In this document: one piece after another, positions 2,897 through 28,533 of the stretch | Layout of the letters: every line of letters starts with the position of its first letter | Position numbering within the stretch: the first letter of the stretch is position 1 | Source: an archaeon GW2011_AR10 | Lineage (GTDB): Archaea; Iainarchaeota; Iainarchaeia; Iainarchaeales; GW2011-AR10 | DNA length: 32,000 nucleotides | NCBI GenBank assembly: GCA_000830275.1 | Contig: CP010424.1 | Coordinates: 30,001-62,000 of the forward strand | Direction of reading: 5' to 3' | Position numbers and translations under genes: made by a program | The notes under the pieces: generated by a model | Databases searched by the model: none | The model's input: the letters and a program-made list of their open reading frames with translations, nothing else | What the model was told of the DNA's origin: nothing

Positions 2897-3013
2897 GGAA
2901 CTTTGCTGTTCTTTCCTGTTCCAAAAAATAAAATGTTTCAGGAAAACCAGTGCAGTTAAGTACTACCAGAAATTTATTTATATTACTTCCACCTATTCTC
3001 TTAGGTCTTCACA

Positions 3014-3998: not shown

Positions 3999-4805
3999 AT
4001 GAAGCTTTTTGCTCCTGTTCCAAAACTGAAATTTTTTGGTCTTGTTTCAAGGGCAAAGGTTTCACTGGTTTTTTTCTTTGCGCTGCTGGCTGCATACTTT
4101 TTTCTTTCAGGCGGCAACCTCTTCATTCCGCAGCAGGCAATTTTTTCGCTTTCTTTCGGCTGGGGTGCATTGCATAACGCTTTCTTTTTTGAATTCGTGC
4201 AGAAAAGCCTTTTTCATCTCACAGCAAACATTGTTTCCTTTCTTTTCTTTGCATTGATTGTTGAGCTTGCGCTTTCAGGCCTTGACGTTTTGCTGGTTTT
4301 CTTTTTTGCGTCAATTGCTTCAGCACTTGTCTTTCTACTGTTAAACCCAAGCACTGTTTTGTTCGGCTCAAGCGCTGGAGTAAGCGGCCTTCTCGGAGTT
4401 GCAGCTGTGCTCTCCCCCAGAAAAACCGCTGCAGCAATAATTGCAGTGGTTCTGCTGCTCAACTTCCTTGTTGTCCCATTTGTTTCGGAAACCCTGAAAG
4501 CAGAGGAAGCACGGCTTCAGGAAAAACAGGGGTTGCTGGAAAAAGACTTGAACCGTGCGCTGGCAGGCGGCGACAAGAACAGGGCTGCTGCAATCAAGGA
4601 ACAGTTAGGGAAGGCCGAGAAGGAAGCAGCTGAATTTGACTTAGGCAAATTGTTTGACGCTGTCACTGGCACCGACTTCTGGATTCACGGTTTGGGGGCA
4701 TTTTTCGGTTTGGCTTACTTGTTTTTCTTCCGCAGGGAAAAGTTCTGGCACGCGCTGAAAGAGATTTCCGGAAAAGTGAAGAAATATAAATCAGGAAGGC
4801 ATTAA
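3999..4805 (+). CDS. Rhomboid family intramembrane serine protease with a long insertion before the last helix
   Basis: HLTANIVSFLFFALIVE (TM2 HxxxN motif), GSSAGVSGLLG (GxSxG catalytic Ser helix) and WIHGLGAFFG (catalytic His helix). Several hydrophobic helices. Starts 4 nt after the beta-CASP stop. Confidence 0.75.
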   Translation: MKLFAPVPKLKFFGLVSRAKVSLVFFFALLAAYFFLSGGNLFIPQQAIFSLSFGWGALHNAFFFEFVQKSLFHLTANIVSFLFFALIVELALSGLDVLLVFFFASIASALVFLLLNPSTVLFGSSAGVSGLLGVAAVLSPRKTAAAIIAVVLLLNFLVVPFVSETLKAEEARLQEKQGLLEKDLNRALAGGDKNRAAAIKEQLGKAEKEAAEFDLGKLFDAVTGTDFWIHGLGAFFGLAYLFFFRREKFWHALKEISGKVKKYKSGRH

Positions 4806-4812
4806 TTTTCTT

Positions 4813-5220
4813 ATGCGGTTTGGTTTCAGAAAAAAGCGGAAGCCAAAAAAGCCTGCCTCAGGAGATAGTGGTTTGGAGGAGTTTGTGCCGGATAAGGGCA
4901 CAACGCAATTGAGGAGGGCTTTTGTGGGAAAGTTTGCCTTGCCTGATGCAAGGTTGCGTAGAACTCTTAATTCGCTTGAGAAAAAATTTTCAGAAACAAG
5001 GGAAGGAAAAGGCCTCTTGAAAACACTCAGGAACGCAAATTCAAGGCTTGACAGAATGCGAAGTTCACAGTCTCTTTACCGCTCTTATGTTTCCGCCCAC
5101 ATCCAGTTCACTGAGGGCATGATCAGGTTTGCACAAAAAAGTGGTGCGCTCCCTGCAGTAATTGAGCAGCTCAGGTTCGAGTCCAAGGAATGGCACTCCC
5201 GCCTCATGAAAGCCCGCTGA
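4813..5220 (+). CDS. Small basic helical orphan protein (135 aa)
   Basis: ATG at 4813. Basic N-terminus MRFGFRKKRKPKKP. The C-terminal ~45 aa are alignable to the next ORF (FAQKSGALPAVIEQLRFESKEWHSRL vs FARSEGSYATVIASIQGELKSWQGKL). Confidence 0.5.
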   Translation: MRFGFRKKRKPKKPASGDSGLEEFVPDKGTTQLRRAFVGKFALPDARLRRTLNSLEKKFSETREGKGLLKTLRNANSRLDRMRSSQSLYRSYVSAHIQFTEGMIRFAQKSGALPAVIEQLRFESKEWHSRLMKAR

Positions 5221-5265
5221 TTGCTCTTGCGCAAGTATTTAATATTCCAATTCCCTATTTCTATT

Positions 5266-5718
5266 ATGTTTTTTATTATGTTCAGGGTGCCTGGAGCGCT
5301 AAAAGGAAAACATTTAGTTGGAGGGCAAGGTGCCGCTAGTAAGGCTGCTCAAAGAAAGGCTCGCGATTCTGTTTCCCCCAAAAAACTTGAAAAGGCAGCG
5401 CGCTTTAGTGCACTTCAGAAAAAACGGGTTACAAAGCTGTTCAATGAAAACGCTGTGGGCATTCTTTTAATGAAGAAAATCTGGTCTGCTGCCAGTGATT
5501 ACAGTAGAAGGGTTGAAATGTATTCCCGCCAAAAAATTGGTGCGGAAGAGGCTTTGACTATTGAGAGAACCCATAAGAAGTTGGTTTCAGCAAATGTAAA
5601 ATATTATGAAAGCCTGCTCGAGTTTGCGAGGAGCGAGGGCTCTTATGCTACAGTGATTGCCTCAATTCAGGGAGAATTAAAGTCGTGGCAGGGCAAGCTT
5701 CTTACATCCAGGAACTAA
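5266..5718 (+). CDS. Small basic helical orphan protein, tandem paralog of 4813..5220
   Basis: The track ORF starts at TTG 5221. I prefer ATG 5266 (or 5278, MFRVPGALKGK) because a TATA-like tatttaatat lies at 5235-5244, about 25-30 nt upstream, which would give a leaderless mRNA. The C-terminus is paralogous to the preceding ORF. Confidence 0.5.
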   Translation: MFFIMFRVPGALKGKHLVGGQGAASKAAQRKARDSVSPKKLEKAARFSALQKKRVTKLFNENAVGILLMKKIWSAASDYSRRVEMYSRQKIGAEEALTIERTHKKLVSANVKYYESLLEFARSEGSYATVIASIQGELKSWQGKLLTSRN

Positions 5719-5778
5719 TGCTGTTGCCTTTCGTCTGCATCCATTTGCCTGGAATTAGCCTTTTATTATTACCCTTAA

Positions 5779-5790
5779 AGTATATAATAT
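5779..5790 (+). promoter_or_regulatory. Candidate archaeal TATA box for the aspS-gat operon
   Basis: agtatataatat sits in a 285-nt AT-rich gap. A start about 25 nt downstream (~5810) would put the whole hairpin array in the 5' leader. Sequence resemblance only. Confidence 0.4.
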
Positions 5791-5817
5791 AGCAAAATGC
5801 TTGTGTTTTTGAACAAA

Positions 5818-5967
5818 TAGCGAATGACTTTAATAATGGTAAAAAACAAGTCATTCGCTAGTCGCAAAAGACATTAAGAAATTACCAAAACCAATGTCTT
5901 TTGCTAAAAAACTGCATTTTGCAACCAGCAAACAGCAAATTAAATGTTAAAAATCAAGCTGTTTGCT
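5818..5967 (+). promoter_or_regulatory. Three tandem perfect hairpins (structured 5' leader, or a REP-like palindrome array) upstream of aspS
   Basis: H1 arms 5818-5830 tagcgaatgactt / 5848-5860 aagtcattcgcta (13 bp, 17-nt loop). H2 arms 5864-5875 gcaaaagacatt / 5893-5904 aatgtcttttgc (12 bp, 17-nt loop). H3 arms 5927-5936 agcaaacagc / 5958-5967 gctgtttgct (10 bp, 21-nt loop). All stems are mismatch-free and all loops are A-rich. Confidence 0.7.
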
Positions 5968-6002
5968 ATATGGCTAATAGTTGGTGTACTGGTGAGCGTT
6001 TA

Positions 6003-7778
6003 ATGCAGAGGACTCATTCTTGTGGCGAGCTAACCGAGAAGCATGCCGGAAAAGAAGTGGTTTTGAGTGGCTGGGTTAGCAACAGAAGAGACCACGGAGG
6101 CTTAACCTTTGTTGACTTGAGGGACCGTTATGGCATAACCCAAGTAATATTTAACCCTAAAACCAGCAGAAGCGTGCAGGAAAAAGCAAAGGAATTAAGA
6201 GACGAGTTTGTTGTTGCTGTCAGTGGAAATGTTGTGAAGAGGCCAAAGGGCACTGAAAACAAGGAGCTTTCAACTGGGGCAATTGAGGTGCAGGCAAAGG
6301 AACTCGAAATAGTGAGCCGCTGCGAGCCGCTGCCATTGGAGGTAAGCGGAAAAACATTGGCTAATGAGGATGTGAGGCTAAAGTACAGGTTCCTGGATTT
6401 GCGCAGGCCGGAAATGCAGCAAAACATTGTTTTAAGGCACAGGCTCGGAAAAGTTGTGAGAGAGTACTTTTATTCAAGGGGCTTCCTTGAAATTGAAACG
6501 CCTTTTCTTTCAAAGTCAACTCCGGAGGGAGCAAGGGACTACCTTGTTCCAAGCAGAGTCCATCCGGGAAAATTTTTTGCTCTTCCGCAGAGCCCGCAGC
6601 TGTTCAAGCAGCTGCTAATGGTCAGCGGCTTTGACAAGTATTTCCAGATAGTGAAATGCTTTAGGGACGAGGATTTGAGGGCAGACAGGCAGCCGGAGTT
6701 CACGCAGATTGATGTTGAAATGAGTTTTGTAAGCGAAGAAAACATTTTTGAAATTGTTGAGGGGCTGTTTAAAGACATATTCAAGGAAATCAAGGGAATA
6801 AACCTGAAGACTCCTTTTCCAAGAATCAGCTATGAGGAGTCGATGGAGCGCTTTGGCGTTGATAATCCTGACATGCGCTTTGGGCTGGAACTGGTGGAAG
6901 TAACCGAAGCAATCAAGGGCTCAGGCTTCAAGGCATTCAGTCAAGAAATCGAATACAATGGAATAGTTAAGGCGCTTAACGCTGAAAAATGCGGCGGATT
7001 TTCAAAGAAAGAGCTAGATGAATTGATTGAGCTGGCGCAGGTGCACCGGGCGAAAGGCCTTGTATGGTTTAAGGTTGCAAGTGGCGGCTTGGAGGGCCCG
7101 GTTGCAAAGTTTTTCAACGAGAAAATTTTGAAGGAACTTGCAAGTAAAACAAAAGCAAAGGAAAATGATTTGCTTCTGCTTGTTGCAGGAAAAGAGGAAG
7201 TAGTTAATGCAGCGCTGGGGAGCATTAGGAGGGAGTTGGGGAAAAAACTTGGCTTGATTGACGATAAGAAGATTTCTTTTGTGTGGATAGTTGATTTTCC
7301 GCTGCTGGAGTTTGACGAGGAAGAAGACAGGTGGCAGGCAAAGCACCATCCTTTCACTTCTCCGCAGGAAAAAGATTTGCCATTACTTGAAAAGGAGCCA
7401 GGCAAAGTCAAGGCAAGGGCATATGACGTTGTGCTTAACGGTGTCGAGCTTGGCGGGGGAAGCATCAGGATTCATAGGGGGGAAGTGCAGGAGAAAATGT
7501 TCGCTGCTCTTGGCATTTCAAAGCAGGAGGCAGAAGCAAAGTTCGGGTTTTTGCTGGATGCATTCAAGTATGGTGCACCGCCTCATGGGGGAATTGCTTT
7601 CGGCTTTGACAGAATTGCAGCAATGCTTGCAGGCACTGAAAGCATCAGGGAAGTAATAGCGTTCCCGAAAAACAAGGCGGCAGTTTCGCTGATGGACAGT
7701 GCTCCAAGCCCAGTAAGCGAGAGACAGTTAAAGGAGCTGAAGCTGAAGCTTGACCTTGAAAAGAAAGGAAAGAAATAG
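6003..7778 (+). CDS. aspS: Aspartyl-tRNA synthetase, bacterial type (with GAD insertion domain)
   Basis: ATG 6003 gives MQRTHSCGEL, preceded by GGTGA at 5991-5995. Class II motifs are present: FFALPQSPQLFKQLLMVSGFDKYFQIVKCFRDEDLRADRQPEFTQIDVEMSF and GGGSIRIH. At 591 aa it carries the ~130-aa insertion (SYEESMERFGVDNPDMRFGLELVEV...) typical of bacterial rather than archaeal AspRS. Confidence 0.92.
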   Translation: MQRTHSCGELTEKHAGKEVVLSGWVSNRRDHGGLTFVDLRDRYGITQVIFNPKTSRSVQEKAKELRDEFVVAVSGNVVKRPKGTENKELSTGAIEVQAKELEIVSRCEPLPLEVSGKTLANEDVRLKYRFLDLRRPEMQQNIVLRHRLGKVVREYFYSRGFLEIETPFLSKSTPEGARDYLVPSRVHPGKFFALPQSPQLFKQLLMVSGFDKYFQIVKCFRDEDLRADRQPEFTQIDVEMSFVSEENIFEIVEGLFKDIFKEIKGINLKTPFPRISYEESMERFGVDNPDMRFGLELVEVTEAIKGSGFKAFSQEIEYNGIVKALNAEKCGGFSKKELDELIELAQVHRAKGLVWFKVASGGLEGPVAKFFNEKILKELASKTKAKENDLLLLVAGKEEVVNAALGSIRRELGKKLGLIDDKKISFVWIVDFPLLEFDEEEDRWQAKHHPFTSPQEKDLPLLEKEPGKVKARAYDVVLNGVELGGGSIRIHRGEVQEKMFAALGISKQEAEAKFGFLLDAFKYGAPPHGGIAFGFDRIAAMLAGTESIREVIAFPKNKAAVSLMDSAPSPVSERQLKELKLKLDLEKKGKK

Positions 7779-7809
7779 TTTTTGCTTTTTTCATTAGTTT
7801 AGGCGGTGC

Positions 7810-8112
7810 ATGTTTTTGGCTAATGCAAGGGTTAATGCTGAAACACTGAAAAGGGTTGCAAGGAACGCTAGGCTTAACCTTTCAGATGATGAGGTGAGGG
7901 AGTTCTTGCCTCAACTCAACGAGGTTCTTGAAAAGTTTTCAGTGCTCGGCAAAATGAAGGTTGAAAAAGTGAAGCCTTCCTTTCAGCCGGTTGAGTTAAG
8001 CAATGTGCTGCGGGAAGACAATGCGTTGGAGTGCTTGACGCAGGAAGAAGCGCTTTCAAACACCAAGCACAAAAAGTACGGCTACTTCAGGGGGCCGAAG
8101 ATTATTCAATAG
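7810..8112 (+). CDS. gatC: Glu/Asp-tRNA amidotransferase subunit C
   Basis: 100 aa. Sequence VARNARLNLSDDEVREFLPQLNEVLEKFSVL...SFQPV...LREDN is GatC-like. GGCGGTG lies at 7802-7808 before the ATG. It sits immediately upstream of gatA. Confidence 0.85.
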   Translation: MFLANARVNAETLKRVARNARLNLSDDEVREFLPQLNEVLEKFSVLGKMKVEKVKPSFQPVELSNVLREDNALECLTQEEALSNTKHKKYGYFRGPKIIQ

Positions 8113-8128
8113 CTTAGGAGTAGGTTGA

Positions 8129-9550
8129 GTGGACGCATTCCGGTTCGCGAAAGAATCGCAGGGAAAAGGTTTTTCAGTTGAACATCACACAGCGAAAGTG
8201 CTGGAAAAATCGGAAAAGCTTAACAAAAGATTTCATCACCTTAAGCTGATTTCATCTGATTATGCTGTTAAGCGCTCCAAAGAACTTGACAGGCAGGGAA
8301 AACGTTCTGGACGGCTTTTTGGCTTGCCGGTTTCAGTGAAGGACTGCCTTTGCATTAAGGGCATTGAGTCAACTGCCGGCTCAAAAATTCTCTCAGGCTA
8401 TCTGCCGGTTTCAACTGCAACAGCTGTTAAAAAGCTGGAGGAAGAAGGCGCAGTTGTGATTGCAAAAACCGCGCAGGACGAGTTTGGTTTCGGAACTTTT
8501 TCCACTAACATTCTGGAGCAGAAAATTCCGCTTAACCCGTTTGACTTGGAGAGGAGCTGTGGTGGAAGCAGCGGTGGCTCAGCCGGATTCACTGCTGTTG
8601 CTGATTTCCCGCATGTTTCGGTTGGGGAAAGCACTGGTGGCAGCATTGCGTGCCCTGCATCTTTCTGCGGTGTTGTCGGCTTAACCCCGAGCTATGGAAG
8701 GGTTTCAAGGCATGGCCTGATTGATTACGCCAACTCTCTTGACAAAATAGGCGCAATTGCTAAAACAGTGAGAGAGGCAGCACTGCTTCTGGAGCTTATG
8801 TCAGGAAAAGACGAAAAGGATTCAACTTCGCTTCCAGCAGAAGCTGAAAAGCTTTCCGAGCTCAATGGCACTGATGCAAAAAAATTGCGAGTAGGCGTAG
8901 TGAAAGAGTTTTTTGGTGCAGGAATCAGCAGTGGAGTAAGCAAGGTTGCATGGAACGCAATTAAGCAGCTTGAATCAGAGGGCGCAAGAGTGGAGGAAGT
9001 TTCACTTCCTTTGAATGCGAAGTTCGGCATAGCAGCATACTATCTTATTGCGTTAAGCGAGGCCTCAACAAATCTTGCCCGTTACTGCGGAATGCGTTAT
9101 GGGGTGCATGAAAAGCTTGAGGGAAACTTTGACGAGTACTTTTCAATGGTGCGCAGCAAAAATTTTTCGAAGGAATCCAAGAGAAGAATCATTCTTGGCA
9201 CTTTTGCCAGGATGGCTGGCTTCAGGGGTGCTTATTATGTTAGGGCAATGAAGGCCCGCACAAAACTTGTTGAGGAATTCAGGAAGGCCTTTAAGAGTTT
9301 CACGGTTCTTGCCCACCCAACAATGCCGTTGGTTGCACCTAAATTCAGTGAAATTGAGAAGCTTAGCCCCTTACAGCAGTACTCAATGGATTTGTGCACT
9401 GTGCCTGCAAATTTGGCTGGTTTGCCTCACATTTCAGTCAATGCAGGGAAAAGCAGCGGAATGCCGGTTGGCCTGATGTTTTCAGCTGACCACTTGCATG
9501 AAAAAAATGTGGTTTCAGCTGCAGCTGCTCTCGAGGCGGTGGTTGCTTGA
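8129..9550 (+). CDS. gatA: Glu/Asp-tRNA amidotransferase subunit A (amidase signature family)
   Basis: GTG start with AGGAG at 8116-8120. Amidase signature GGSSGGSAGF, plus GLPVSVKD and GESTGGSIACPASFCGVVGLTPSYGRVSRHGLI. Confidence 0.92.
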   Translation: MDAFRFAKESQGKGFSVEHHTAKVLEKSEKLNKRFHHLKLISSDYAVKRSKELDRQGKRSGRLFGLPVSVKDCLCIKGIESTAGSKILSGYLPVSTATAVKKLEEEGAVVIAKTAQDEFGFGTFSTNILEQKIPLNPFDLERSCGGSSGGSAGFTAVADFPHVSVGESTGGSIACPASFCGVVGLTPSYGRVSRHGLIDYANSLDKIGAIAKTVREAALLLELMSGKDEKDSTSLPAEAEKLSELNGTDAKKLRVGVVKEFFGAGISSGVSKVAWNAIKQLESEGARVEEVSLPLNAKFGIAAYYLIALSEASTNLARYCGMRYGVHEKLEGNFDEYFSMVRSKNFSKESKRRIILGTFARMAGFRGAYYVRAMKARTKLVEEFRKAFKSFTVLAHPTMPLVAPKFSEIEKLSPLQQYSMDLCTVPANLAGLPHISVNAGKSSGMPVGLMFSADHLHEKNVVSAAAALEAVVA

Positions 9551-10323
9551 GGAAGGAAACAAGGGCTGCGATTAAAGCTGCAGGCGAAGCCGGAAAAATA
9601 ATAATGAAGCACTTCAAGAGAAAGCCTTCCTTCATGCATAAGTCAAGCGCCGTAGACCTTGTCACAGAGGCTGACTTGGAAGCTGAGAAGAAAGTAAAGT
9701 CAATTTTGGGAAAGGCTTTCCCTGATTTTGGGTTTTTGGGAGAGGAATCCGGGGCAGAGGAAGGTTCCAATGGCAGGTATTGGGTTGTTGACCCCGTAGA
9801 TGGAACAAACAATTTTGCTCACCGGTTCCCTTTCTTCTGCGTTTCAATTGCTTTGGTGGAGGAAAAAAAAGTAGGGCTTGGAGTCATATTCGATCCTGCT
9901 GCAAAAGAGCTGTTTGTTGCAGAGAAAGGAAAAGGCGCTTTCCTCAACGGGAACAGAATAAGGGTTTCAAGCACCTCCAGATTGATTGATTCGCTTGTTG
10001 TTACTGGTTTTCCATACAATGAAAGAAAATTAATTGATAAGACAATCAAATCAATTAGCAATCTTGTTGGAAAAACCCACGGCGTGCGGAGGATGGGTTC
10101 TGCTGCGCTTGACCTCTGCTATGTTGCAAGCGGAAGATCAGATGCTTTCTTCGAGTATGAGTTGAAGCCGTGGGATGTTGCTGCAGGGCTAATTATTTTG
10201 GGTGAAGCCGGGGGCAAGCTTACGACAATCAACAACGAAAAAGCAGATTTGTTCAGCGTTAACTTCATCGCGTCAAACGGAAAAATTCACAGGGAACTAT
10301 TCGAAAAACTGGTGAGGCTATGA
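9547..10323 (+). CDS. Inositol monophosphatase family protein (IMPase/FBPase-type)
   Basis: FLGEESG, WVVDPVDGTNNF, RRMGSAALDLCYVASG and WDVAAG. The TTG start at 9547 overlaps the gatA stop (9548-9550). Its stop (10321-10323) overlaps the gatB ATG (10320). The conserved N-terminal helix AAIKAAGEAGKII argues against the later ATG at 9604. Confidence 0.85.
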   Translation: MRKETRAAIKAAGEAGKIIMKHFKRKPSFMHKSSAVDLVTEADLEAEKKVKSILGKAFPDFGFLGEESGAEEGSNGRYWVVDPVDGTNNFAHRFPFFCVSIALVEEKKVGLGVIFDPAAKELFVAEKGKGAFLNGNRIRVSSTSRLIDSLVVTGFPYNERKLIDKTIKSISNLVGKTHGVRRMGSAALDLCYVASGRSDAFFEYELKPWDVAAGLIILGEAGGKLTTINNEKADLFSVNFIASNGKIHRELFEKLVRL

Positions 10324-11741
10324 TGGCATTGCAGGAAAGCAGTTCAGGTTTCAGGGCTGGGTTCGAGCTTCACGTTTCCTTGAACACGGAGAGCAAGCTT
10401 TTCTGTGGCTGCAGTGTCGCGGAAAAAACCGCTGCCCCAAACTCTTCTTGCTGCGAGATTTGCCTTGGTTTTCCAGGAAGCAAGCCCCTTGCCAACAGGA
10501 AGGCTATTGAGTACGCGTTGAAACTCGCACTCGCCCTTAACTGCAAAATAGCTCCTGAAATGCGTTTCTCCAGAAAGGTTTACAGCTACCCTGACCTTGC
10601 AAAAAACTTCCAGATATCTCAGTTTGAGGTGCCGTTAGGAGAGAATGGCTTTGTTTTGCTTGACTCAGCCAAAAAAATTCGCATCAAGAGGGTTCACTTG
10701 GAGGAGGACCCTGCGGCAATAGTGCATGAGGGCAGCGTTGCTTCAGCTTCATCTTGCCTTGTTGACTACAATCGTTCTGGAGTGCCTTTAGTGGAAATTG
10801 TGACTGAACCAGACATTTCTTCTGCTGGGGAGGCAAGAGAATTTTTTTCAAAAATTAGGTCAATTATTTTTTACCTTGACATTTTTGATGAAAGGAAATC
10901 AGTAATAAAAGCTGACACCAATATTTCGGTTGATGGCGGGAACAGGGTTGAAGTGAAAAATGTGACCGGCATCAAAAACATTGAGAAGGTGCTTGGCTTT
11001 GAGGTTGAAAGGCAGAAAACTGCGGTTAAAGCAGGAACTGGAGTGAAAAGGGAAACAAGGGGCTTTGATGAAGTAACCTCTTCAACCTTTTCTTTAAGGG
11101 AAAAGGAAACAGAAGATGACTATGGCTACATCATTGAACCAGACTTAACCAAAATAGTTCTTGAAAAGAAATTGGTAAAAGAAGTCAGGGATTCCCTTCC
11201 TGAACTGCCAGAGGAAAAAGTGAAGAGGCTCAAAAAGGAATTCAAGCTAAGCGAGTACAATGCAAGGGTTATGGCGTCAGACCCTGAGCTTGGCAAACTA
11301 TTTGAGTCAGCTGCAAAAGAAGTCGGAGCAGAGCTTGCGGCAAAGTTCCTCAGCAGAGAGCTTTTAGGAATACTCAACTACAATGACCTTTCGCTGAGAG
11401 AGTTAAGCCTTTCCTCCAAGGAAATAATTTCGCTGCTTAAGCTGCTGGAACAGGAAAAGGTTTCAGAAAAGAATGCCAAGGAAGCAACGATAAAATATGT
11501 TTTGGAAGGCGTTCCCCCACTCAAATTCCTCAAAGGAGAACAGCTTTTGTCGGATGTGCCTGATGACACATTAATTAAAACTGTTGAAAAGGTCATGAAA
11601 GAAAACCCTAAGGCAATAAGTGATTTGCGGAAAGGCGAGAAAAAGGCAATGAATTTCTTGGTGGGAATTGCAATGCGTGAAATGAAGGGAAAAGCCGAGG
11701 CAAGGAAAGTCCAAGAAATAATCAAGGAAAAACTAAAGTGA
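10320..11741 (+). CDS. gatB: Glu/Asp-tRNA amidotransferase subunit B
   Basis: GFELHVSLNTESKLFCGCS, CEICLGFPGSKP, VHLEEDPAAIVHE, DYNRSGVPLVEIVTEPD and a C-terminal YqeY-like tail. GGTGAGG lies at 10311-10317 before the ATG. Confidence 0.92.
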   Translation: MMALQESSSGFRAGFELHVSLNTESKLFCGCSVAEKTAAPNSSCCEICLGFPGSKPLANRKAIEYALKLALALNCKIAPEMRFSRKVYSYPDLAKNFQISQFEVPLGENGFVLLDSAKKIRIKRVHLEEDPAAIVHEGSVASASSCLVDYNRSGVPLVEIVTEPDISSAGEAREFFSKIRSIIFYLDIFDERKSVIKADTNISVDGGNRVEVKNVTGIKNIEKVLGFEVERQKTAVKAGTGVKRETRGFDEVTSSTFSLREKETEDDYGYIIEPDLTKIVLEKKLVKEVRDSLPELPEEKVKRLKKEFKLSEYNARVMASDPELGKLFESAAKEVGAELAAKFLSRELLGILNYNDLSLRELSLSSKEIISLLKLLEQEKVSEKNAKEATIKYVLEGVPPLKFLKGEQLLSDVPDDTLIKTVEKVMKENPKAISDLRKGEKKAMNFLVGIAMREMKGKAEARKVQEIIKEKLK

Positions 11742-14572: not shown

Positions 14573-14585
14573 ATTCATTCAACCC

Positions 14586-14708
14586 AAAAGATACCTCGGC
14601 TTTTAAGTCGCGGTTTGTAGGCCTCGGTATCTTTTCCGTTGACGGGTTCATGACGTCCATTAAATGTTGGGATACCCCTGCCTTTAGGCATGGGAGGACG
14701 TCATTTTT
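14586..14708. terminator. Two imperfect hairpins between convergent genes
   Basis: aaaagatacc (14586-14595) pairs with ggtatctttt (14626-14635). tgacgtcc (14651-14658) pairs with ggacgtca (14696-14703), with an inner tgcc/ggca pair, followed by ttttt (14704-14708). The second hairpin overlaps the last codons of the GT4 gene. Confidence 0.3.
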
Positions 14709-17194: not shown

Positions 17195-17229
17195 CAAGCA
17201 TTAAATATTTGGATATAAAAGCAACAGGA

Positions 17230-17315
17230 TGGGGGTGCCAGGGATCGGACCTGGGACCTTCCGGTTTCTGCTTCCGCATTATCAGCCGGATGCACCACCA
17301 CTATGCTACACCCCC
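17230..17315 (-). tRNA. tRNA-Ile(GAU) with a 14-nt intron at 37/38
   Basis: Minus-strand read: GGGGGTG TA GCAT AGTGGTG GTGC A TCCGG CTGATA [ATGCGGAAGCAGAA] A CCGGA AGGTC CCAGG TCCGATC CCTGG CACCCCC A. The acceptor, anticodon and T stems all pair. The anticodon GAT is the complement of 17281-17283. The intron is plus 17266-17279. A relaxed bulge-helix-bulge can be drawn (CUG/CAG central helix, 3-nt bulges at both junctions). Confidence 0.8.
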
Positions 17316-17460
17316 AATAAGGCTATCAGCTCGCTGAAGCACTTAGAATTTAGCTTGGATTAACTTTTTAAAAGCATTTTCAGGCGCCAAAATTTTGTCA
17401 TTTAAAGCCCATTGCAGAACTTTTTAATAGAATGCCTGCACAAATTTAGTTTACGATTCT

Positions 17461-17575
17461 AGCCCCATAGTCTAGCGGCCAAGGATACAGGGCTTTGGTC
17501 AAAGCTTGCTTTGGTTCGCCAAGATAGGCTCTTGGAAGAAACCCTGTGACAGGAGTTCGAATCTCCTTGGGGCTA
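17461..17575 (+). tRNA. tRNA-Gln(UUG) with a 42-nt intron at 37/38
   Basis: AGCCCCA TA GTCT AGCGGCCAA GGAT A CAGGG CTTTGG [intron 17499-17540] A CCCTG TGAC AGGAG TTCGAAT CTCCT TGGGGCT A. The anticodon TTG is at 17495-17497. The BHB is drawable: CTTT (17493-17496) pairs with GAAG (17535-17538), leaving bulges GG|T and AA|A that carry the splice sites. An outer helix forms between CAA (17500-17502) and TTG (17532-17534). Confidence 0.9.
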
Positions 17576-18160: not shown

Positions 18161-19003
18161 TCACTTCCAGTACTTTTTAAGTACTTCTGGAATTTCGCTT
18201 AAAAAATCCGATGCAGTAAAACCATATCCTTTCTTTCTTAAAAGTATATCTCCTACTGCTCCATTGATGAATGCTGCAGCGCATGCAGAATCAAACAAGG
18301 AATTCTTCTGCGCAACCAGTGCAGCGCAGATTCCAGCGAGAACATCCCCTGTTCCTCCAACAGTCATTCCTGCATTTCCTGTCTTGTTCAGCTTCACTTT
18401 TCTGCCATCTGAAATTGCATCAATTTTTCCCTTAAGCAAAATAACGCAGTCGTGTTTTTTGGCAGTTTGTTTAACAATTTTTTCCCTGTTTTTGTGGGGG
18501 TTTTTTCCTGAAAAAATTTGGAATTCAACTGCATGAGGCGTAATAAGGACTTTTCCGGAAAACTTTTTGCCTTTCATGGCTTTTATTGCGTCTGCATCCA
18601 AAATCATTGGTTTACCGCATTTTGAAACAACTTTTTTCACAAAATTGGCGGTTTTCTTGTCTTGCCCTAGTCCGGGCCCAATAAGAACGCAGTCAGCTTT
18701 TTTGCTCAAATCCAAAACATTTTTTGCATCAGTTTCAGAAAAAGAACTGCCTTTTACTTTCCTCACAATCAAATCCGGAGAGTAGCGATTAATAATAAAG
18801 CCGGCTTTTTCAGGTGCAATTACTGTTACCAAATCCACGCCCGTTCTATAACATGAAAGGGCTGCAAGTGCAGCCAATGCTGGCGCTCCAACCAAGTCAT
18901 TGCTGCCGCCAACAACCAACACTTTCCCATTATCCCCCTTGTGCGAGTCCGGCCTTCTCTTATGAAAGCATTTCCTAGCATCTTTTTCCTGGACAATTTT
19001 CAT
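18161..19003 (-). CDS. nnrD: ADP-dependent NAD(P)H-hydrate dehydratase (YjeF C-terminal family)
   Basis: HKGDNGKVLVVGGS, LIGPGLG, LITPHAVEF and GNAGMTVGGTGDVLAGICAAL. The ATG overlaps the gatE stop (ATGA at 19003-19000). Confidence 0.85.
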   Translation of the reverse strand: MKIVQEKDARKCFHKRRPDSHKGDNGKVLVVGGSNDLVGAPALAALAALSCYRTGVDLVTVIAPEKAGFIINRYSPDLIVRKVKGSSFSETDAKNVLDLSKKADCVLIGPGLGQDKKTANFVKKVVSKCGKPMILDADAIKAMKGKKFSGKVLITPHAVEFQIFSGKNPHKNREKIVKQTAKKHDCVILLKGKIDAISDGRKVKLNKTGNAGMTVGGTGDVLAGICAALVAQKNSLFDSACAAAFINGAVGDILLRKKGYGFTASDFLSEIPEVLKKYWK

Positions 19004-20889
19004 TTTGAAACAACTTTTTCTATTTCCTTTTTCAGCAAAGCATTTATTTCCTGGCCTGAGGCTTTTCCCTTCAATTCTTTCATTGCATCCCCCATAAGCG
19101 CGCTCGCGGACTGCATTCCTTTCTCTTTAACCAAAACCATATTTTTACGCACAATTTCTTTCACAATATTTTCAACTTCTCCTGTTCCAACAGCCTTAAC
19201 TTTCATTTCTTTCAGCACTGATTCAAAGCTTTCCCTTGGTTTTTTCGCCCACCATCCAAGCACTTCAAGCAAAACATCCTGCGTTATTTTCTTTTCCTTC
19301 AATGCAAGCATTGTTTCCTCAACCATTTCATTTGAAATGTTTTCAGTCGGAATTCCGTCCCTTTTGAGTTTTGTTATTCCTTCAAGCAGCAGCACTGCCG
19401 CCTGCTTTGCGTCAACTTTCTTCTCTTCCACTAGCCTGCGGTAAAACCTCGCGTAATTGCTGAGCTTCATTTCTTCCGCGAGCTTTTCGCTTAAGCCGAA
19501 CTTCTTCACGAAAAGCTCTTTTCTTTGCTCTGGAGTCAAAGGAAGGTTTGCTCTAATCTGTTTCAGGATTTTTTCGTCAACAGCAATTGTTTCCAAATCA
19601 GTTTCAGGGTACATCCTTGCTGCTCCCGGCAGGGGCCTGCTGTATTCAGTGTTGCCGTCTTCCAGTGCATTTCTTGTTTCCTCTGGCACTCCTTTAACTG
19701 CAATCAGTGCCCTGTCCTTGACAGCATTAAGTGCTTTCCTTATTTCTTCAATGCTTTCGTGGAACACAAGGACAAAAGCATCCTTTTCTTTAACTCCAAG
19801 TTTTCTTTCAATTGTTTCCTTTTCCTGCGCACTGATTCCATAGCCCGGAAGCTCATCCGAGTGAAATATTCCTTTAAGCTTGCTGCGTGCCTTAACATAA
19901 CTCGAGATTTCTGTTCCAAAGCGCCTGTTTGGCTGCACTTCTTGTCCGAGCAAACCCTTAAAGCCGTTGAGCTTTACCGCAAAAACCTTTTTTCCTTTCA
20001 GCAGCTTGCAATCACTGCCATACAATTCATTTGCCAGCTCCTTTTCTTCTCCAATGCAGTTGCTTTCATTTATTCTGCGCAGTTTCAATTCTTCTCTTAT
20101 TGCAAGCAGTATGCGCTGCCTCTCCACTTCCCTCCTCACATACTCATCAATTAGCTCAACTTCCTGGACTCCTTTAATTTCTACTCTTGCACCTTCACTA
20201 ATTGAAATGTTTAGGTCCTGCCTTATTGTTCCTAAGCCTCGCTTCATTCTCCCCGTTCTGCGCAGCAATGCGCCGATTGCTAGAGCGCATTCCTTCACTT
20301 CCTCAGGAGAAAAAAGTTCAGGGTTAGTTGCAAACTCAATCAGCGGGATCCCTAATCTGTCAAGCCTGTAAACGATTTCGTTTTCCCGTTTCTCCATTGG
20401 CCTTGCAGCATCCTCCTCCAGAACAATTGTTTGAACTCCAACTTCCTTGTTTTTCAGCTTCAGTTTTCCTCCAACTGCTACAAGCATTGTGCGCTGGAAA
20501 GAGCTAGTGTTTGAGCCGTCAGCAACCAACTTTCTCATCACAAACATTTCATCAAGTATGCTGGCTTGGGCCATCAGTGCAACTTCCAGTGCTACCTTCA
20601 ATGCATCTTTGTCAATTGGCTGCGGTGGGGCTGAATCAGTTTCAACTTCACACGTGGAGTCATTGTAGCCCTCGTAAATGTAGGTTAAACCCTTTCTTGT
20701 CTGCTCCAGCGCTGCTGCGTCAAACTCTCCCATTTCTGAAGCAGTCGGCCTAATGTATCTGCGAACAGTAAAATTAGGCTTGTCTTCGCGCAGCACTGAT
20801 TTGTCCCTGCAGAACAGCTTTCCTGTATCGAGCTGCTGGTGCACTTCCAATCCTGCTTTCAAACCCAGTTTTTTGTAGTCTTCAGCCAT
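19000..20889 (-). CDS. gatE: Glutamyl-tRNA(Gln) amidotransferase subunit E (archaeal)
   Basis: LGLKAGLEVHQQLDTGKLFC at the N-terminus. 629 aa, with a GatB-like core plus the inserted domain and a C-terminal GatB/YqeY tail (ASALMGDAMKELKGKASG). Confidence 0.9.
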   Translation of the reverse strand: MAEDYKKLGLKAGLEVHQQLDTGKLFCRDKSVLREDKPNFTVRRYIRPTASEMGEFDAAALEQTRKGLTYIYEGYNDSTCEVETDSAPPQPIDKDALKVALEVALMAQASILDEMFVMRKLVADGSNTSSFQRTMLVAVGGKLKLKNKEVGVQTIVLEEDAARPMEKRENEIVYRLDRLGIPLIEFATNPELFSPEEVKECALAIGALLRRTGRMKRGLGTIRQDLNISISEGARVEIKGVQEVELIDEYVRREVERQRILLAIREELKLRRINESNCIGEEKELANELYGSDCKLLKGKKVFAVKLNGFKGLLGQEVQPNRRFGTEISSYVKARSKLKGIFHSDELPGYGISAQEKETIERKLGVKEKDAFVLVFHESIEEIRKALNAVKDRALIAVKGVPEETRNALEDGNTEYSRPLPGAARMYPETDLETIAVDEKILKQIRANLPLTPEQRKELFVKKFGLSEKLAEEMKLSNYARFYRRLVEEKKVDAKQAAVLLLEGITKLKRDGIPTENISNEMVEETMLALKEKKITQDVLLEVLGWWAKKPRESFESVLKEMKVKAVGTGEVENIVKEIVRKNMVLVKEKGMQSASALMGDAMKELKGKASGQEINALLKKEIEKVVSK

Positions 20890-25114: not shown

Positions 25115-25576
25115 TTAGACCTGCTTCAGCACAATCATTGTCTGGGTTTTGTCCACGCCGTCAATGTTCCTGAGTTTTTCGGTTACGATGTTGTTTAGGT
25201 CCTCAATGTCCTTTGCAAGAACAAGCGCAATTATGTCAAGGCCTCCTGTCAGGATTGTAACTTGTCTTACTCCGTCAAGGTGCTTAATCTGTTTCGCAAG
25301 ATCTGCCTGCCTGATTTTCTTGCTTTCAATGTTGTAGTTAATTGTTATTCCGATGAATGCCATGATTGGCCTTCCCAGTTTCCTGTAGTCAATGTTAACA
25401 GTGTAATTCAGTATTATTCCGTTTTTTTCCAGTTTCTTAAGCCTGTTGTGGATAGTGGTTGGAGGCCAGCCGAGCCTCTTGCTTAGCCTTCCCACAGTCT
25501 GCCTGCTGTTGTTGATTAGCTCGGAAATCAGTGCCCGGTCCTTTTCGTCAATTTTCAGTCTTTTCTCCTCTTCCAT
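25115..25576 (-). CDS. Lrp/AsnC family transcriptional regulator
   Basis: MEEEKRLKIDEKDRALISELINNSRQTVGRLSKRLGWPPTTIHNRLKKLEKNGII (HTH) followed by a RAM/ACT-like domain (AFIGITINY...VTILTGGLDIIALV). ATG 25576 is preferred over the track start at 25639. Confidence 0.85.
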   Translation of the reverse strand: MEEEKRLKIDEKDRALISELINNSRQTVGRLSKRLGWPPTTIHNRLKKLEKNGIILNYTVNIDYRKLGRPIMAFIGITINYNIESKKIRQADLAKQIKHLDGVRQVTILTGGLDIIALVLAKDIEDLNNIVTEKLRNIDGVDKTQTMIVLKQV

Positions 25577-25781
25577 GTGCTTTAACCCACTAATTTTATG
25601 TATTTTAATATATATAAATATTTTGGAATATTTTTCCATTTTTAAGCTAAAATAGTCATTTTTTTGAAAATTTTTCGAAAAAAATCGGAATATGTTTTTA
25701 TATAAGTTTCAGGCAGGATTATGTATAAACTTGGTTTCTTTTCAGCAATACATTAAATGCAAAAAACAGGTATGTAACTCT

Positions 25782-26879
25782 ATGCAAAAAAAGAAAATAC
25801 TGTTCTTATACAATGGCGGAACAATCGGTCAGATTCCAGAAAAAAGGGGCAACCAAGTAATTTTGGTTGCGCCCAAGGATGGCAAAGAGTTTCGCTCTGC
25901 TTGCCAGCCAGTTCTTGAAAAATTCAGCAAAGAACAAAACTTGGAAATTGATTTTGAATTAGTGACCACTAAAGACAGCACTAACATGACGCCCAATGAC
26001 TGGGAGAAACTGATTTTCAGAGTAAAAAAAGCACAGGATGATGAAAAATATGACGCTGTCGGAATAGCCCACGGAACAGATACATTGGTTTACACGGCAA
26101 CCGCATTAGCGCTTGCGCTTCATGGAAAAAACCCCGAGAAAAGCGGTTTAAGGATTCCAGTTTGTATTACCGGGGCACAGAATCCAGTTTACGAACAAGG
26201 CGGAGACGGAAAGTTCAATCTTGAAAATTTGTTCAGAGTGCTTAATAGTTCAATTGAAGAAGGAGTGGCAGATGTATTGGTAAATTTCTGGGACAAAGTT
26301 TTTTTGGGGTGCAGGACACTAAAAACAAGCGAAAAAAACTTTGACGCCATGGAATCCCCTTCATATCCAAAGGTGGGCTTGATTGACGGAACCGGAGTCC
26401 ACATTTATAAAAATCTTTTAAGAAAAAAAGAAAACGCTGAAGAAAAACTGAATATTGCTCCGAAATTCGGAAGAGGCGTAGTTAGCTTCGAACTTGCTCC
26501 TGGAATAGAGCCAAGCCTTATTTTGGGCTTCATTACAAGCGGCGGAGTAGCAGCAATGATCCTTAAATCTCTGGGGGAAGGAAATGTCTGCTCTGAGGGA
26601 GAATTCAGTTTGCTTCCAGCAATAAGACAATCTACAAATGAATATATGACGCCGATTTTCATTACAACAAAGTTTGTCGGCGGGAATGCAGTTGCAACGC
26701 ATTATGAAACCGGCTATGAAGCATTAAAGGCAGGGGCAATTGCCTGCTTTGACCACACAGACGTGGCTGTTGATGTTAAGGTAAGGTGGCTGATTGGAAA
26801 TGGTATTTGCTCAAGCATTGAGGAATTCCGCAAAGCAATGAAAACAAGTTTTGCTGGGGAAGTAACTTTCTTAAAATAA
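25782..26879 (+). CDS. ansA: Type I L-asparaginase family protein (catalytic motifs intact)
   Basis: ATG 25782 gives MQKKKILFLYNGGTIGQ (GGT nucleophile motif). DSTNMTP, AHGTDTLVYTA and CITGAQNP are also present. 365 aa. Confidence 0.8.
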   Translation: MQKKKILFLYNGGTIGQIPEKRGNQVILVAPKDGKEFRSACQPVLEKFSKEQNLEIDFELVTTKDSTNMTPNDWEKLIFRVKKAQDDEKYDAVGIAHGTDTLVYTATALALALHGKNPEKSGLRIPVCITGAQNPVYEQGGDGKFNLENLFRVLNSSIEEGVADVLVNFWDKVFLGCRTLKTSEKNFDAMESPSYPKVGLIDGTGVHIYKNLLRKKENAEEKLNIAPKFGRGVVSFELAPGIEPSLILGFITSGGVAAMILKSLGEGNVCSEGEFSLLPAIRQSTNEYMTPIFITTKFVGGNAVATHYETGYEALKAGAIACFDHTDVAVDVKVRWLIGNGICSSIEEFRKAMKTSFAGEVTFLK

Positions 26880-27085: not shown

Positions 27086-27221
27086 ATAGGTCCGCCCTGT
27101 TTTTGTACAATAGTTTTCCCAATAAATACCCTTTTTTCAGCCTTTGGAGGGCGCGCTGCCTGATTTGCTCCCTATTGCTTGTATTTTTATAAAAATCAGA
27201 ATTAAATAAACCCTTCCTCAT
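27075..27221 (-). CDS. Possible antitoxin (VapB-like) remnant, 48 aa
   Basis: The minus ORF reads MRKGLFNSDFYKNTSNREQIRQRALQRLKKGYLLGKLLYKNRADLYDR*. It ends 11 nt inside the PIN fragment start, which is a toxin-antitoxin-style overlap. Its first 20 nt overlap the gatD 3' end out of frame. It is too short for a full DNA-binding antitoxin. The call is positional inference only. Confidence 0.25.
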   Translation of the reverse strand: MRKGLFNSDFYKNTSNREQIRQRALQRLKKGYLLGKLLYKNRADLYDR

Positions 27222-28533
27222 ATTGTGTCCTCTCACTTATCTCTCCCCTGAGATTCTTTCCAACCAGTTCCCTCGCCTCTTCAGGCTTGTAATTTCCAAG
27301 CAGCCACGCCAGCTTAATGAAGGCTGTTTCCGGCAGCATGTCCTTCCCAGGAATAATGCCGAGTTTCTGCAGTTCAACGCCCTTGTCGTAAACGTGCATG
27401 TGAACCCTGCCATAAAGCGTTTGTGTTGTCATCACAACAACGCTGTTTTTTGCCAACTCCGCCAAAGCTTTCCACAGTTTCTTGTGCACTTCATTATTTT
27501 TGTCGCTCACGAAGCCCGGAGCATGGCCTAAGCCTGTTCCCTCAATCACAATTCCCTTGAACTTGTTTTTCGAGTAAAACTCGAACTGCTCCGGAAACAT
27601 GTTAGTGGTTATTTTAAGCAAGCCAACTTTGTCCTCCATTTTGTCCAAAACCCTGAATTTTTTGTTAGGATTTTTTCTATTATAATCTTTTTTCAGGAAC
27701 TCAATCTGCTTTGTTTTGTAATCCACTAAAGCAATTGGAGTGTCATTCACTGCCTTGAACGCATCACGCCTCGAGGAATGCATTTTGCGGGTTTTGCATG
27801 CAGGCAGGATTGCGCACTTGTCGTCGCTGGAGGAATTGTGCATGCATATTGCAACCCCGGCAAAATCGCTTTTAAGAATGAATTCTGCTGCACAGTCAAG
27901 GTTCATTGCTGCATCAGAACTGCCTCTGTCAGAGCTTCTCTGTGCTCCAACCAGCAGCACCGGCACAGACACATTTTCCAGAATGAAGGAAAGCGCTGCT
28001 GCAGTGAAGTGCATTGTGTCAGTGCCGTGGCCGATTATTACTCCCTTGGCTCCTTTGCCCGCCATTTCTGCAACGCTGTTTGCAATAACCGAGTAGTGCT
28101 TGAAGCGCATGTCATCGCTCCACATGTTGCTCAAAAACTTGGAGCTGATGTTGCATTTCTCGGTTATTTCAGGGTACATTGAAAGAACGTCTTTCTCGTC
28201 AAAGTGGGCGTAAACCGCCCCGCTTCTGTAATCAACCCTGCTCGCAATTGTGCCACCAGTGTGAATTATTGCAATTGTGGGGAGCTGCGGATTTTTCTTT
28301 ATTTCACGTGTTTCTGCTTTCCCGACTTTTTTCAGCCCCTCCATTTTTTCGATTTTTGTTTTAGCTGAAACTTTTACGCCAATGTTGTAGCCTGACTTGA
28401 GTTTTAACCGCAGAATGCTGCTGTTTTTCCCTGCCGGCAGAACGTTCCCCTCAAAAACCTTGGTGCCTTCGGTTACTTTTATCAGCTGCCCTTCAGCAAT
28501 TTTGTTTTTTTTCAGGAGAGAAGCTGCATCCAT
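27202..28533 (-). CDS. gatD: Glutamyl-tRNA(Gln) amidotransferase subunit D (archaeal)
   Basis: GatD-specific N-terminal domain (KVTEGTKVFEGNVLP...LKLKSGYNIGV) followed by an asparaginase fold with IIHTGGTIAS, GHGTDTMHFTA and LLVGAQRSSDRGSSDA. 443 aa. Confidence 0.92.
   Translation of the reverse strand: MDAASLLKKNKIAEGQLIKVTEGTKVFEGNVLPAGKNSSILRLKLKSGYNIGVKVSAKTKIEKMEGLKKVGKAETREIKKNPQLPTIAIIHTGGTIASRVDYRSGAVYAHFDEKDVLSMYPEITEKCNISSKFLSNMWSDDMRFKHYSVIANSVAEMAGKGAKGVIIGHGTDTMHFTAAALSFILENVSVPVLLVGAQRSSDRGSSDAAMNLDCAAEFILKSDFAGVAICMHNSSSDDKCAILPACKTRKMHSSRRDAFKAVNDTPIALVDYKTKQIEFLKKDYNRKNPNKKFRVLDKMEDKVGLLKITTNMFPEQFEFYSKNKFKGIVIEGTGLGHAPGFVSDKNNEVHKKLWKALAELAKNSVVVMTTQTLYGRVHMHVYDKGVELQKLGIIPGKDMLPETAFIKLAWLLGNYKPEEARELVGKNLRGEISERTQYEEGFI

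Follow-up and report, generated by a model that had tools for sequence, protein, structure and literature searches.

Three short hairpins stand in tandem ahead of aspS, the aspartyl-tRNA synthetase (AspRS) gene, in the archaeon GW2011_AR10 (contig CP010424.1), a Diapherotrites-like DPANN archaeon from groundwater. We conclude that this array is probably a cluster of dispersed palindromic units resembling the REP (repetitive extragenic palindromic) sequences and bacterial interspersed mosaic elements (BIMEs) of bacteria. Here, the window is the whole 32,000-nt stretch that was analyzed, unprefixed coordinates are window positions, and L-numbers denote comparison loci. An earlier inspection (the sequence-only reading) had favored a new kind of aspS leader and named a REP/BIME-like palindrome cluster as its alternative; that alternative is the best fit to the evidence. 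The same units occur at unrelated loci and in both orientations, are present or absent at an orthologous site between close relatives, and change position between homologous arrays, and their pairing is strand symmetric. As the best explanation of the sequence, positions 5779 to 5970 would be a mosaic cluster of three full units (orientations +, -, +) plus two orphan arms. The units would belong to a family of ~45-nt hairpin elements whose intergenic copies occur both in the window archaeon and in other organisms from samples of a similar kind.

The three mismatch-free tandem hairpins of the sequence-only reading were recovered at the same coordinates by an inverted-repeat search (Table 1). 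They lie in a 284-nt spacer (5719 to 6002) that separates a 150/165-amino-acid (aa) open reading frame (ORF; stop at 5718) from the aspS ATG at 6003. We counted perfect hairpins (stem of at least 10, loop of 10 to 25) in 5000 dinucleotide-preserving shuffles of this spacer: 4931 shuffles contained none, 69 contained one, and none contained two or more, compared with three in the real spacer. By identical criteria, the remaining 31.7 kb of the window has two. If one counts only inverted repeats at least 10 nt long whose arms lie no farther than 40 nt apart, the entire 32 kb has 13, among which the three perfect ones upstream of aspS are adjacent. These hairpins are not produced by chance. The 222-nt hairpin stretch also folds better than shuffles on either strand (z = -5.2 for the + strand and -6.0 for the - strand). 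The sole other sizeable intergenic hairpin of the window is an imperfect 22-nt inverted repeat (82%; 14579 to 14642) between the convergent ends of a cupredoxin-like gene and a glycosyltransferase gene, and its sequence is unlike that of the aspS-upstream units.

Placed in register, the hairpins are three copies of one 43- to 45-nt unit. Each consists of a bottom stem, (A)TAGCAAA/TTTGCTA(T), a variable complementary upper stem of 5 to 7 bp, and an A/T-rich loop of 17 to 21 nt centered on TGGTAA. The layout is [T/C]AGC[R]AA, 12 nt, TG[G/T]TAA, 11 to 13 nt, and TT[Y]GC[T/G]A, with the loop hexamer at unit positions 20 to 25 in all three copies. TAGCRAA occurs 10 times in the window, 5 of them within 5790 to 5968. 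Loops 1 and 3 have AATG(G/T)TAAAAA in common, as had been pointed out. The complementarity described between TGGTAA in loop 1 (5837 to 5842) and TTACCA in loop 2 (5882 to 5887) is also present. Unit 2 repeats the sequence of units 1 and 3 in inverted form, and this inversion accounts for the apparent kissing complementarity.

A pattern search finds the same palindromes at unrelated loci across metagenome contigs, an outcome that the sequence-only reading had named as counting against it. The pattern, TAGCRAA-N12-TGKTAA-N11-13-TTYGCTA, forces 7 of 14 outer positions to be complementary. It gave 44 matches, 6 of which had at least 12 of 14 outer positions complementary (~0.6 expected by chance), and the neighborhoods of these six carried extra units that the pattern does not require (L038a, L046a, and L055 u2 to u5). 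Across ~0.9 Mb of loci examined, perfect-hairpin clusters were seen only in loci with family units or pattern matches.

One of these loci, L055 (1.1 kb), aligns to window positions 5781 to 5970 with 76% identity across 191 nt. Half-site A and unit 1 are nearly the same there as in the window (the unit 1 stem is identical), after which L055 carries four or five other units in a different order. L055 u3 has the same stem as window unit 3 with a different loop. The nearest counterpart of unit 2 is u4 (GTAAAAGACA/TGTCTTTTAC), which shows a compensatory C-G to T-A change and comes after u3, at another array position. From u2, only the right arm is kept in the window, its left arm and loop being replaced by unit 2. 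The flanks of L055 are unlike those of the window on both sides, with GC-rich hairpins upstream and the start of a HAM1-like ORF downstream; the 27-aa N terminus of the latter, used as an X-padded query, had no word match in the protein collection. The GC-rich hairpins (L055 564 to 672, - strand as stored) are two perfect 14-bp stems with 20- to 25-nt loops (TGGATGGGCCCCAA.., AGGCAAAGGCCTGC..) in a noncoding-looking stretch ~150 nt from the array. They have a geometry like that of the A/T-rich units and an unrelated sequence. At the gathering threshold and at E ≤ 10, Rfam yielded no meaningful match for L055, and it had none for this stretch.

Units were likewise found next to other genes. L046 (7.7 kb) encodes a GAN-like DHH protein, PPDK, NAD kinase, and HMG-CoA reductase (hmgA), and its 448-nt NAD kinase-hmgA spacer contains two family units and a third hairpin further upstream, with the last hairpin stopping 18 nt before the start codon. 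In L038 (GC 0.30), a pair of neighboring, oppositely oriented units occupies the space where two convergent genes end, and L039 has a single unit in a divergent spacer. The orientations are + - in both L038 and L046. Beside its family unit, L039 carries a run of other short hairpins (1650 to 1915), two of which have different inner stems on a common outer stem, CAAAAAT/ATTTTTG, the same conserved-outer, variable-inner design as in the TAGCAAA units. As chance matches or hairpins of another kind, we rejected L065 (a bacterial-looking terminator before a YraN-like ORF), L066 (poor arms), L033 (a 53-nt tandem repeat), and L025 (a doubtful member whose 21-bp stem lies close to a group II intron). 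Six matches to the unit pattern in viral contigs were attributed to chance (7 to 10 of 13 arm positions complementary). L046 comes from the same sample as the window organism and has a similar GC content (0.439 versus 0.438), but its NAD kinase has relatives of its own (79 to 100% identity) that are absent from the window-organism sources, and we do not assign it to that organism.

These NAD kinase relatives, at 100, 91, 87, and 79% identity, allowed a comparison of one spacer between close relatives. In the 87% relative (L072), the orthologous spacer has neither unit, the sequence at the site being GGGCA|T|TTACAAATAAG. At the L046 unit site, one different hairpin (AACTGTGGCAAA/TTTGCCAAAGTT) is found in the 79% relatives (L074 and L079), and a hairpin of this type lies elsewhere in the L046 spacer (7160 to 7218). 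The promoter-like box and a 39-aa ORF of the spacer are conserved across L046 and its relatives. Because the hairpins differ at an orthologous spacer while the surrounding sequence is kept, whole units have been gained, lost, and moved. TATTA on both sides of the L046 unit pair could be a target duplication, which is weak evidence in A/T-rich DNA. The conserved ORF (38 to 41 aa; MSLSDVLKTHEAKKKARAKIV...) has its own CGAAAC-TTTTTATAG promoter-like box (L046 ~7020 to 7140, L072 4699 to 4815, and L074 1901 to 2020), is present in the spacers of all four relatives, and is conserved far better than the adjoining hairpins. At the window array, five of the eight assemblies of the organism end or have an N-gap within the array (Table 1), and the array sequence is identical in the assemblies that cross it (L011, L068, and L069). 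The breaks fit repeats elsewhere in the genome or within-population variation.

We aligned 15 units and built a covariance model (R1) for the family. The helix is paired in 87% of cells, compared with 34 to 46% when the partners are slid by one to three columns. Nine of the 14 pairs change on both sides, with 39 compensatory cells versus 11.4 ± 2.8 in shuffles, which bears out the earlier suggestion that the stems are diverged copies of one unit whose arms change together. Pairs 11 to 14, which directly follow the conserved stem base, hold in all 15 units with three or four pair types. G.U accounts for 2 of ~183 paired cells, the rest being Watson-Crick, and pairing is therefore equally good on both strands. 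Such symmetry is expected of a DNA-level palindrome and not of a structure under selection in a single RNA alone. Although the hairpins are real and their structure is constrained, they are generic movable palindromic units and not an aspS-specific sensor.

Units of this kind would spread or be turned over as DNA, as do the REP/BIME elements of bacteria and the REP doublets forming hairpins (REPINs). Possible means are a hairpin-recognizing single-strand DNA enzyme or recombination/template-switch repair that keeps the arms perfect, and the conserved stem base and loop would be the recognition features. The cluster would have landed between the aspS promoter-like box and the Shine-Dalgarno (SD) sequence, inside a lineage-specific 2-kb insertion. 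A hairpin-rich 5' untranslated region (5' UTR) probably results, which may influence mRNA stability and would not sense Asp, Asn, or tRNA.

Several observations weigh against a REP/BIME-like cluster. R1 finds one array in ~50 kb of contiguous genome (the window plus 8.6 kb on the left and 10 kb on the right, taken from other assemblies). Pfam annotations reveal no Y1/HUH (Y1_Tnp) transposase or other mobilizing candidate within 10 kb on either side; the 135- and 150-aa proteins encoded upstream were considered as mobilizers and rejected, as they are helical paralogues with no Pfam nuclease or DNA-binding domain. The sole insertion sequence (IS) seen, in L068, has terminal repeats (TTGTAGATTAAT) unrelated to the unit ends. 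Bacterial REPs carry a GTAG or CGTC tetranucleotide tag (PMC3733652). The units have neither; their ends read (A)TAGC...GCTA(T), and only the doubtful L025 has GTAGC. L055 could be either a paralogue in the window genome or a locus from a relative. Six of the 15 aligned units were found by a pattern that forces the outer seven pairs and the loop hexamer, and these positions are therefore conserved in part by design of the search; only the covariation in pairs 11 to 16 (inner stem) and the unforced neighboring units are independent evidence. Last, a stem base and loop motif shared by organisms of 30 to 44% GC could equally mean a host-factor binding site with a cellular function.

In that case, the units would be general cis-regulatory hairpins, bound by a conserved DPANN protein that recognizes RNA or single-stranded/cruciform DNA and coregulates or insulates housekeeping genes (aspS, HMG-CoA reductase, and the HAM1-like gene) near their promoters or 5' UTRs. 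We consider this unlikely, although it is the strongest of the competing explanations. The stem base and loop hexamer are identical in contigs of 30, 41, and 44% GC, and the presence of both orientations within one array would expose the loop motif on either strand. The placement of the arrays also agrees with it. The tatataat (5781 to 5788) and GGTGA motifs reported by the sequence-only reading are both present, and the box containing the former matches the promoter-like pattern of the window, (g)aaag plus TTTAAATA/TTTATATA, which elsewhere is centered 26 to 38 nt before start codons, with leaders short or none. It would put the transcription start near 5810, just ahead of unit 1, and in L046, too, the distance from a conserved A/T box to the first of the units downstream is about that from promoter to start. 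The window and L046 arrays begin about where a TATA-driven transcript would, and they end 18 to 35 nt before the start codon. From these motifs, the array is probably transcribed as the aspS 5' UTR; this much of the earlier proposal is plausible, in contrast to the regulatory role specific to aspS/gatCAB that it attached. The placement is not a rule, however, because the L038 pair sits between convergent gene ends and not at a promoter. Other evidence also speaks against cis-regulation: units are gained, lost, and replaced among relatives whose flanking proteins are 79 to 91% identical, RNA of half the units would display the complement of the loop motif, G.U pairs are nearly absent, and the arrays have no linked regulator gene.

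Replication template switching is an established mechanism of quasi-palindrome mutagenesis, and perfect Watson-Crick arms are what it would give. The palindromes might accordingly be nonmobile local by-products, made and perfected in place in the A/T-rich spacers of these small genomes when quasi-palindromes are corrected or templates switched. In that case, TAGCAAA/TGGTAA would be shared through the common descent of a few old spacers and neither transposition nor function, and the low local density of units would agree. We regard this as improbable, since the same unit type is found at differing positions of homologous arrays and also where the flanks of the spacers are unrelated, and unit ends and loop motif are common to organisms of very different GC.

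The sequence-only reading itself had favored an aspS-gatCAB-specific leader of a new T-box-like kind, that is, a riboregulator that senses tRNA-Asp/Asn, the amino acid, or AspRS and exerts T-box-like or autoregulatory control of aspS-gatCAB. The position of the array between a TATA-like box and the aspS SD is in keeping with this idea, as are the strong predicted folding and a resemblance, by eye only, of UGUUAA in loop 3 to the tRNA-Asn anticodon loop. We consider it very improbable. A search of 5.8 billion proteins with AspRS found the nearest matches at 99 to 100% identity (same organism) and the next at 65% or less, several of them named Diapherotrites, Woesearchaeota, or Micrarchaeota, with no intermediate relatives whose orthologous leaders could show covariation. 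A GTDB genome scan with AspRS returned bacterial relatives only (25 to 58% identity), unfit for leader comparison. Three relatives with AspRS 64 to 65% identical share the gene order MBL (metallo-beta-lactamase fold)-aspS-gatC-gatA-IMPase (inositol monophosphatase)-gatB, and the MBL-fold gene of the window is 59% identical to that of one of them (L013). Their MBL-to-aspS spacers (60, 72, and 44 nt) are T-rich and promoter-like. These spacers contain neither hairpins nor an SD motif comparable to that of the window, and R1 finds no unit in the three aspS loci. The array is thus absent upstream of aspS in all three syntenic loci.

Searches of the window itself gave no sign of such a leader. In the spacer, nothing passes the Rfam gathering threshold, and a sensitive cmscan of 5650 to 6050 (E ≤ 10) returned no T-box (RF00230), only spurious miRNA, sRNA, and snoRNA matches. 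The T-box core motif (..GGUGGNACCGCG..) has no match in 5719 to 6002 at up to three mismatches, and 5600 to 6100 contains no terminator-like site and no antiterminator. In the minimum free energy fold, hairpins 1 to 3 leave the SD unsequestered, and the antisense strand folds equally well. With the same units adjoining unrelated genes, the riboregulator is largely refuted on the terms that the sequence-only reading had set for it, namely, that the palindromes keep to aspS and that their pairings persist there in relatives.

Least probable of all is a replication element, either a chromosomal origin with ORB-like (origin recognition box) repeats or a hairpin left over from the rolling-circle origin of a plasmid or virus that had integrated. 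The inverted repeats do cluster in an A/T-rich spacer, and loops such as AAATATTGGTAA loosely recall nick-site loops of rolling-circle origins. We reject an origin because ~50 kb contain no orc1/cdc6 gene; the same ~50 kb has no Rep or integrase gene, viral contigs yielded chance matches only, the units are found at several loci and vary by insertion or deletion between relatives, and the Rep-Arvir rolling-circle origin paper contains no hairpin matching them.

Table 1. Features of the aspS-upstream array and its surroundings (window coordinates)
Feature	Position	Strand	Evidence and remarks
BRE/TATA-like (B recognition element) box, TAAAG-TATATAATATA	5776..5791	+	Read from sequence; left edge of repeated module, where L055 similarity starts
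Orphan half-site A, TAGCAAAATGC	5790..5800	+	Inverted repeat (9 bp, 100%) with the complementary orphan half-site GCATTTTGC at 5914-5922; kept in L055
Unit 1, forward, stem TAGCGAATGACTT/AAGTCATTCGCTA, TGGTAA loop	5816..5862	+	R1 54.9 bits, E 1.5e-8 (R1 training sequence)
Hairpin 1	5818-5830/5848-5860		Perfect 13 bp, 17-nt loop
Unit 2, inverted, stem GCAAAAGACATT/AATGTCTTTTGC, loop TTACCA on + strand	5860..5908	-	R1 49.9 bits on - strand
Hairpin 2	5864-5875/5893-5904		Perfect 12 bp, 17-nt loop
Orphan right arm D', CTGCATTTTGCAAC	5912..5925	+	Homologous to right arm of L055 unit u2 (alignment)
Unit 3, forward, stem AGCAAACAGC/GCTGTTTGCT, TGTTAA loop	5924..5970	+	R1 44.5 bits; right edge of shared module
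Hairpin 3	5927-5936/5958-5967		Perfect 10 bp, 21-nt loop
SD-like GGTGA	5991..5995	+	8 nt ahead of aspS start; read from sequence
aspS, bacterial-type AspRS with GAD domain, 591 aa	6003..7778	+	Pfam tRNA-synt_2 5e-128, GAD 4e-24; outside repeat
Assembly break, L009	5866
Assembly break, L010	5868
Assembly break, L012	5890
Assembly break, L070	5939
Assembly break, L071	5831-5866		NN across these positions

The gene order of the window is aspS, gatC, gatA, the IMPase gene, gatB, and an SNase gene. In the relatives, the MBL gene directly adjoins aspS, and therefore ~2 kb has been added in the window lineage. This lineage-specific block between the MBL-fold gene and aspS comprises a rhomboid protease gene and two helical ORFs of 135 and 150 aa (3999 to 5718), followed by the 284-nt spacer. 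The two ORFs are paralogous (27% identity; E = 3e-9), and neither has an informative match in Pfam. In one strain (L068 4449 to 9594; window ~2900 to 3010), a 5.1-kb insertion separates the MBL gene from a 107-aa gene. Besides the IS (DDE_Tnp_1), it contains a 239-aa ORF, a stretch resembling a tRNA, and a pair of type II restriction-modification genes (N6_Mtase/Eco57I plus RE_MamI), and it is bounded by TTGTAGATTAAT inverted repeats and a 9-bp duplication (AGTTCCATG).

Public gene calls place the aspS start at ATG 5970, in the sequence just past unit 3 (602 aa; 601 aa in an extra-A variant). We favor the start at 6003 (591 aa), with which the N termini of the relatives (MQRTHSC/MKRTHSC) align and which the GGTGA motif precedes; the 11-aa extension from ATG 5970 appears to be false. 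In practice, the units both break metagenome assemblies at the aspS locus and mislead gene callers to the longer product.

AspRS is of the bacterial GAD-domain type despite the archaeal host, whose archaeal-type features include gatD/gatE, a tRNA with an intron, and regulators of the HVO_0163 and Lrp types. Genes for tRNA-dependent amidation are concentrated in the window: aspS-gatCAB (6003 to 11741), gatE, gatD, and two further asparaginase-family paralogues (19000 to 20889, 25692 to 26879, 27202 to 28533, and 28539 to 29594), with an Lrp/AsnC regulator at 25115 to 25639. Two tRNA genes (17227 to 17316 on the - strand and 17461 to 17575 on the + strand) point away from each other, and an intron is implied for the second by its length of 115 nt. 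Of the two, only the first is called by ARAGORN, which gives it an odd 4-base anticodon, and both tRNAs may be noncanonical.

Among known systems, T-box leaders resemble the array in having a multihairpin region upstream of an aminoacyl-tRNA synthetase (aaRS) gene. Unlike them, the array has no specifier loop, T-box sequence, or terminator/antiterminator and is not conserved with aspS, and the same hairpins adjoin non-aaRS genes. For annotation, this removes a tempting false lead, as there is no evidence here for an archaeal T-box-like aaRS leader. MITEs (miniature inverted-repeat transposable elements) are, like the units, noncoding, intergenic, and indel-polymorphic and have terminal inverted repeats. 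The units are far smaller (two terminal repeats plus a loop), and their inner arms differ between copies. No parent IS was found for them, and we rejected them as a MITE of the L068 IS, whose terminal repeats do not match the unit ends. The subterminal hairpins of IS200/IS605 elements, the substrates of TnpA (Y1 HUH), are small DNA hairpins whose shape and foot sequence could be recognized single stranded, as might hold for the units; unlike these IS ends, the units have no adjacent tnpA/tnpB and form bare clusters instead of the two ends of an element.

The REP/BIME/REPIN elements of enterobacteria and pseudomonads share the most features with the units. They are short (35 to 45 nt) extragenic palindromes, and the units, at 43 to 47 nt with stems of 10 to 14 bp, agree with the description of a REP as an imperfect stem-loop palindrome of ~20 to 45 nt. 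The units are extragenic and dispersed across contigs, next to aspS (window), HMG-CoA reductase (L046), a HAM1-like ORF (L055), and convergent genes (L038). Both kinds of element form mosaic clusters in which neighbors alternate in orientation, adjacent units in opposite orientation being a BIME/REPIN feature (PMC2817692, PMC3116915). In both, a conserved stem base carries an upper stem that varies yet stays paired. Both also differ in presence or absence between close relatives and disturb assemblies, and REPs are often cotranscribed with flanking genes, as the aspS array probably is. Unlike REPs, the units have an archaeal host, are A/T-rich and not G+C-rich, and have unusually large loops (17 to 21 nt) with a conserved hexamer. 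REPs number tens to hundreds per genome; for the units, ~50 kb of contiguous genome gave one array, and the breaks in five of eight assemblies hint at repeats or population variation.

REP/BIME-type repeats and their REP-associated tyrosine transposase (RAYT) partners have been described in bacteria only (PMC2817692, PMC6006769), and our literature search found no description of archaeal REP-like elements. RAYT-type Y1 proteins are reported only from bacteria, archaea having only IS200-type TnpA (PMC6006769). Tentatively, the units may be the cis-elements of an undescribed archaeal hairpin-recognition system. This could take the form of a REPIN/RAYT-like partnership, which would be the first outside bacteria, with a domesticated single-strand DNA enzyme recognizing the TAGCAAA stem base and the TGGTAA loop. 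Alternatively, it could be a DPANN-wide RNA- or DNA-binding factor, with the hairpins used in the 5' UTRs and spacers of housekeeping genes; we consider the two forms together unlikely. If a REP-like family does exist in the ultrasmall DPANN genomes, it would point to an unknown hairpin-recognizing enzyme and would mean that reduced archaeal genomes, too, tolerate or exploit such elements.

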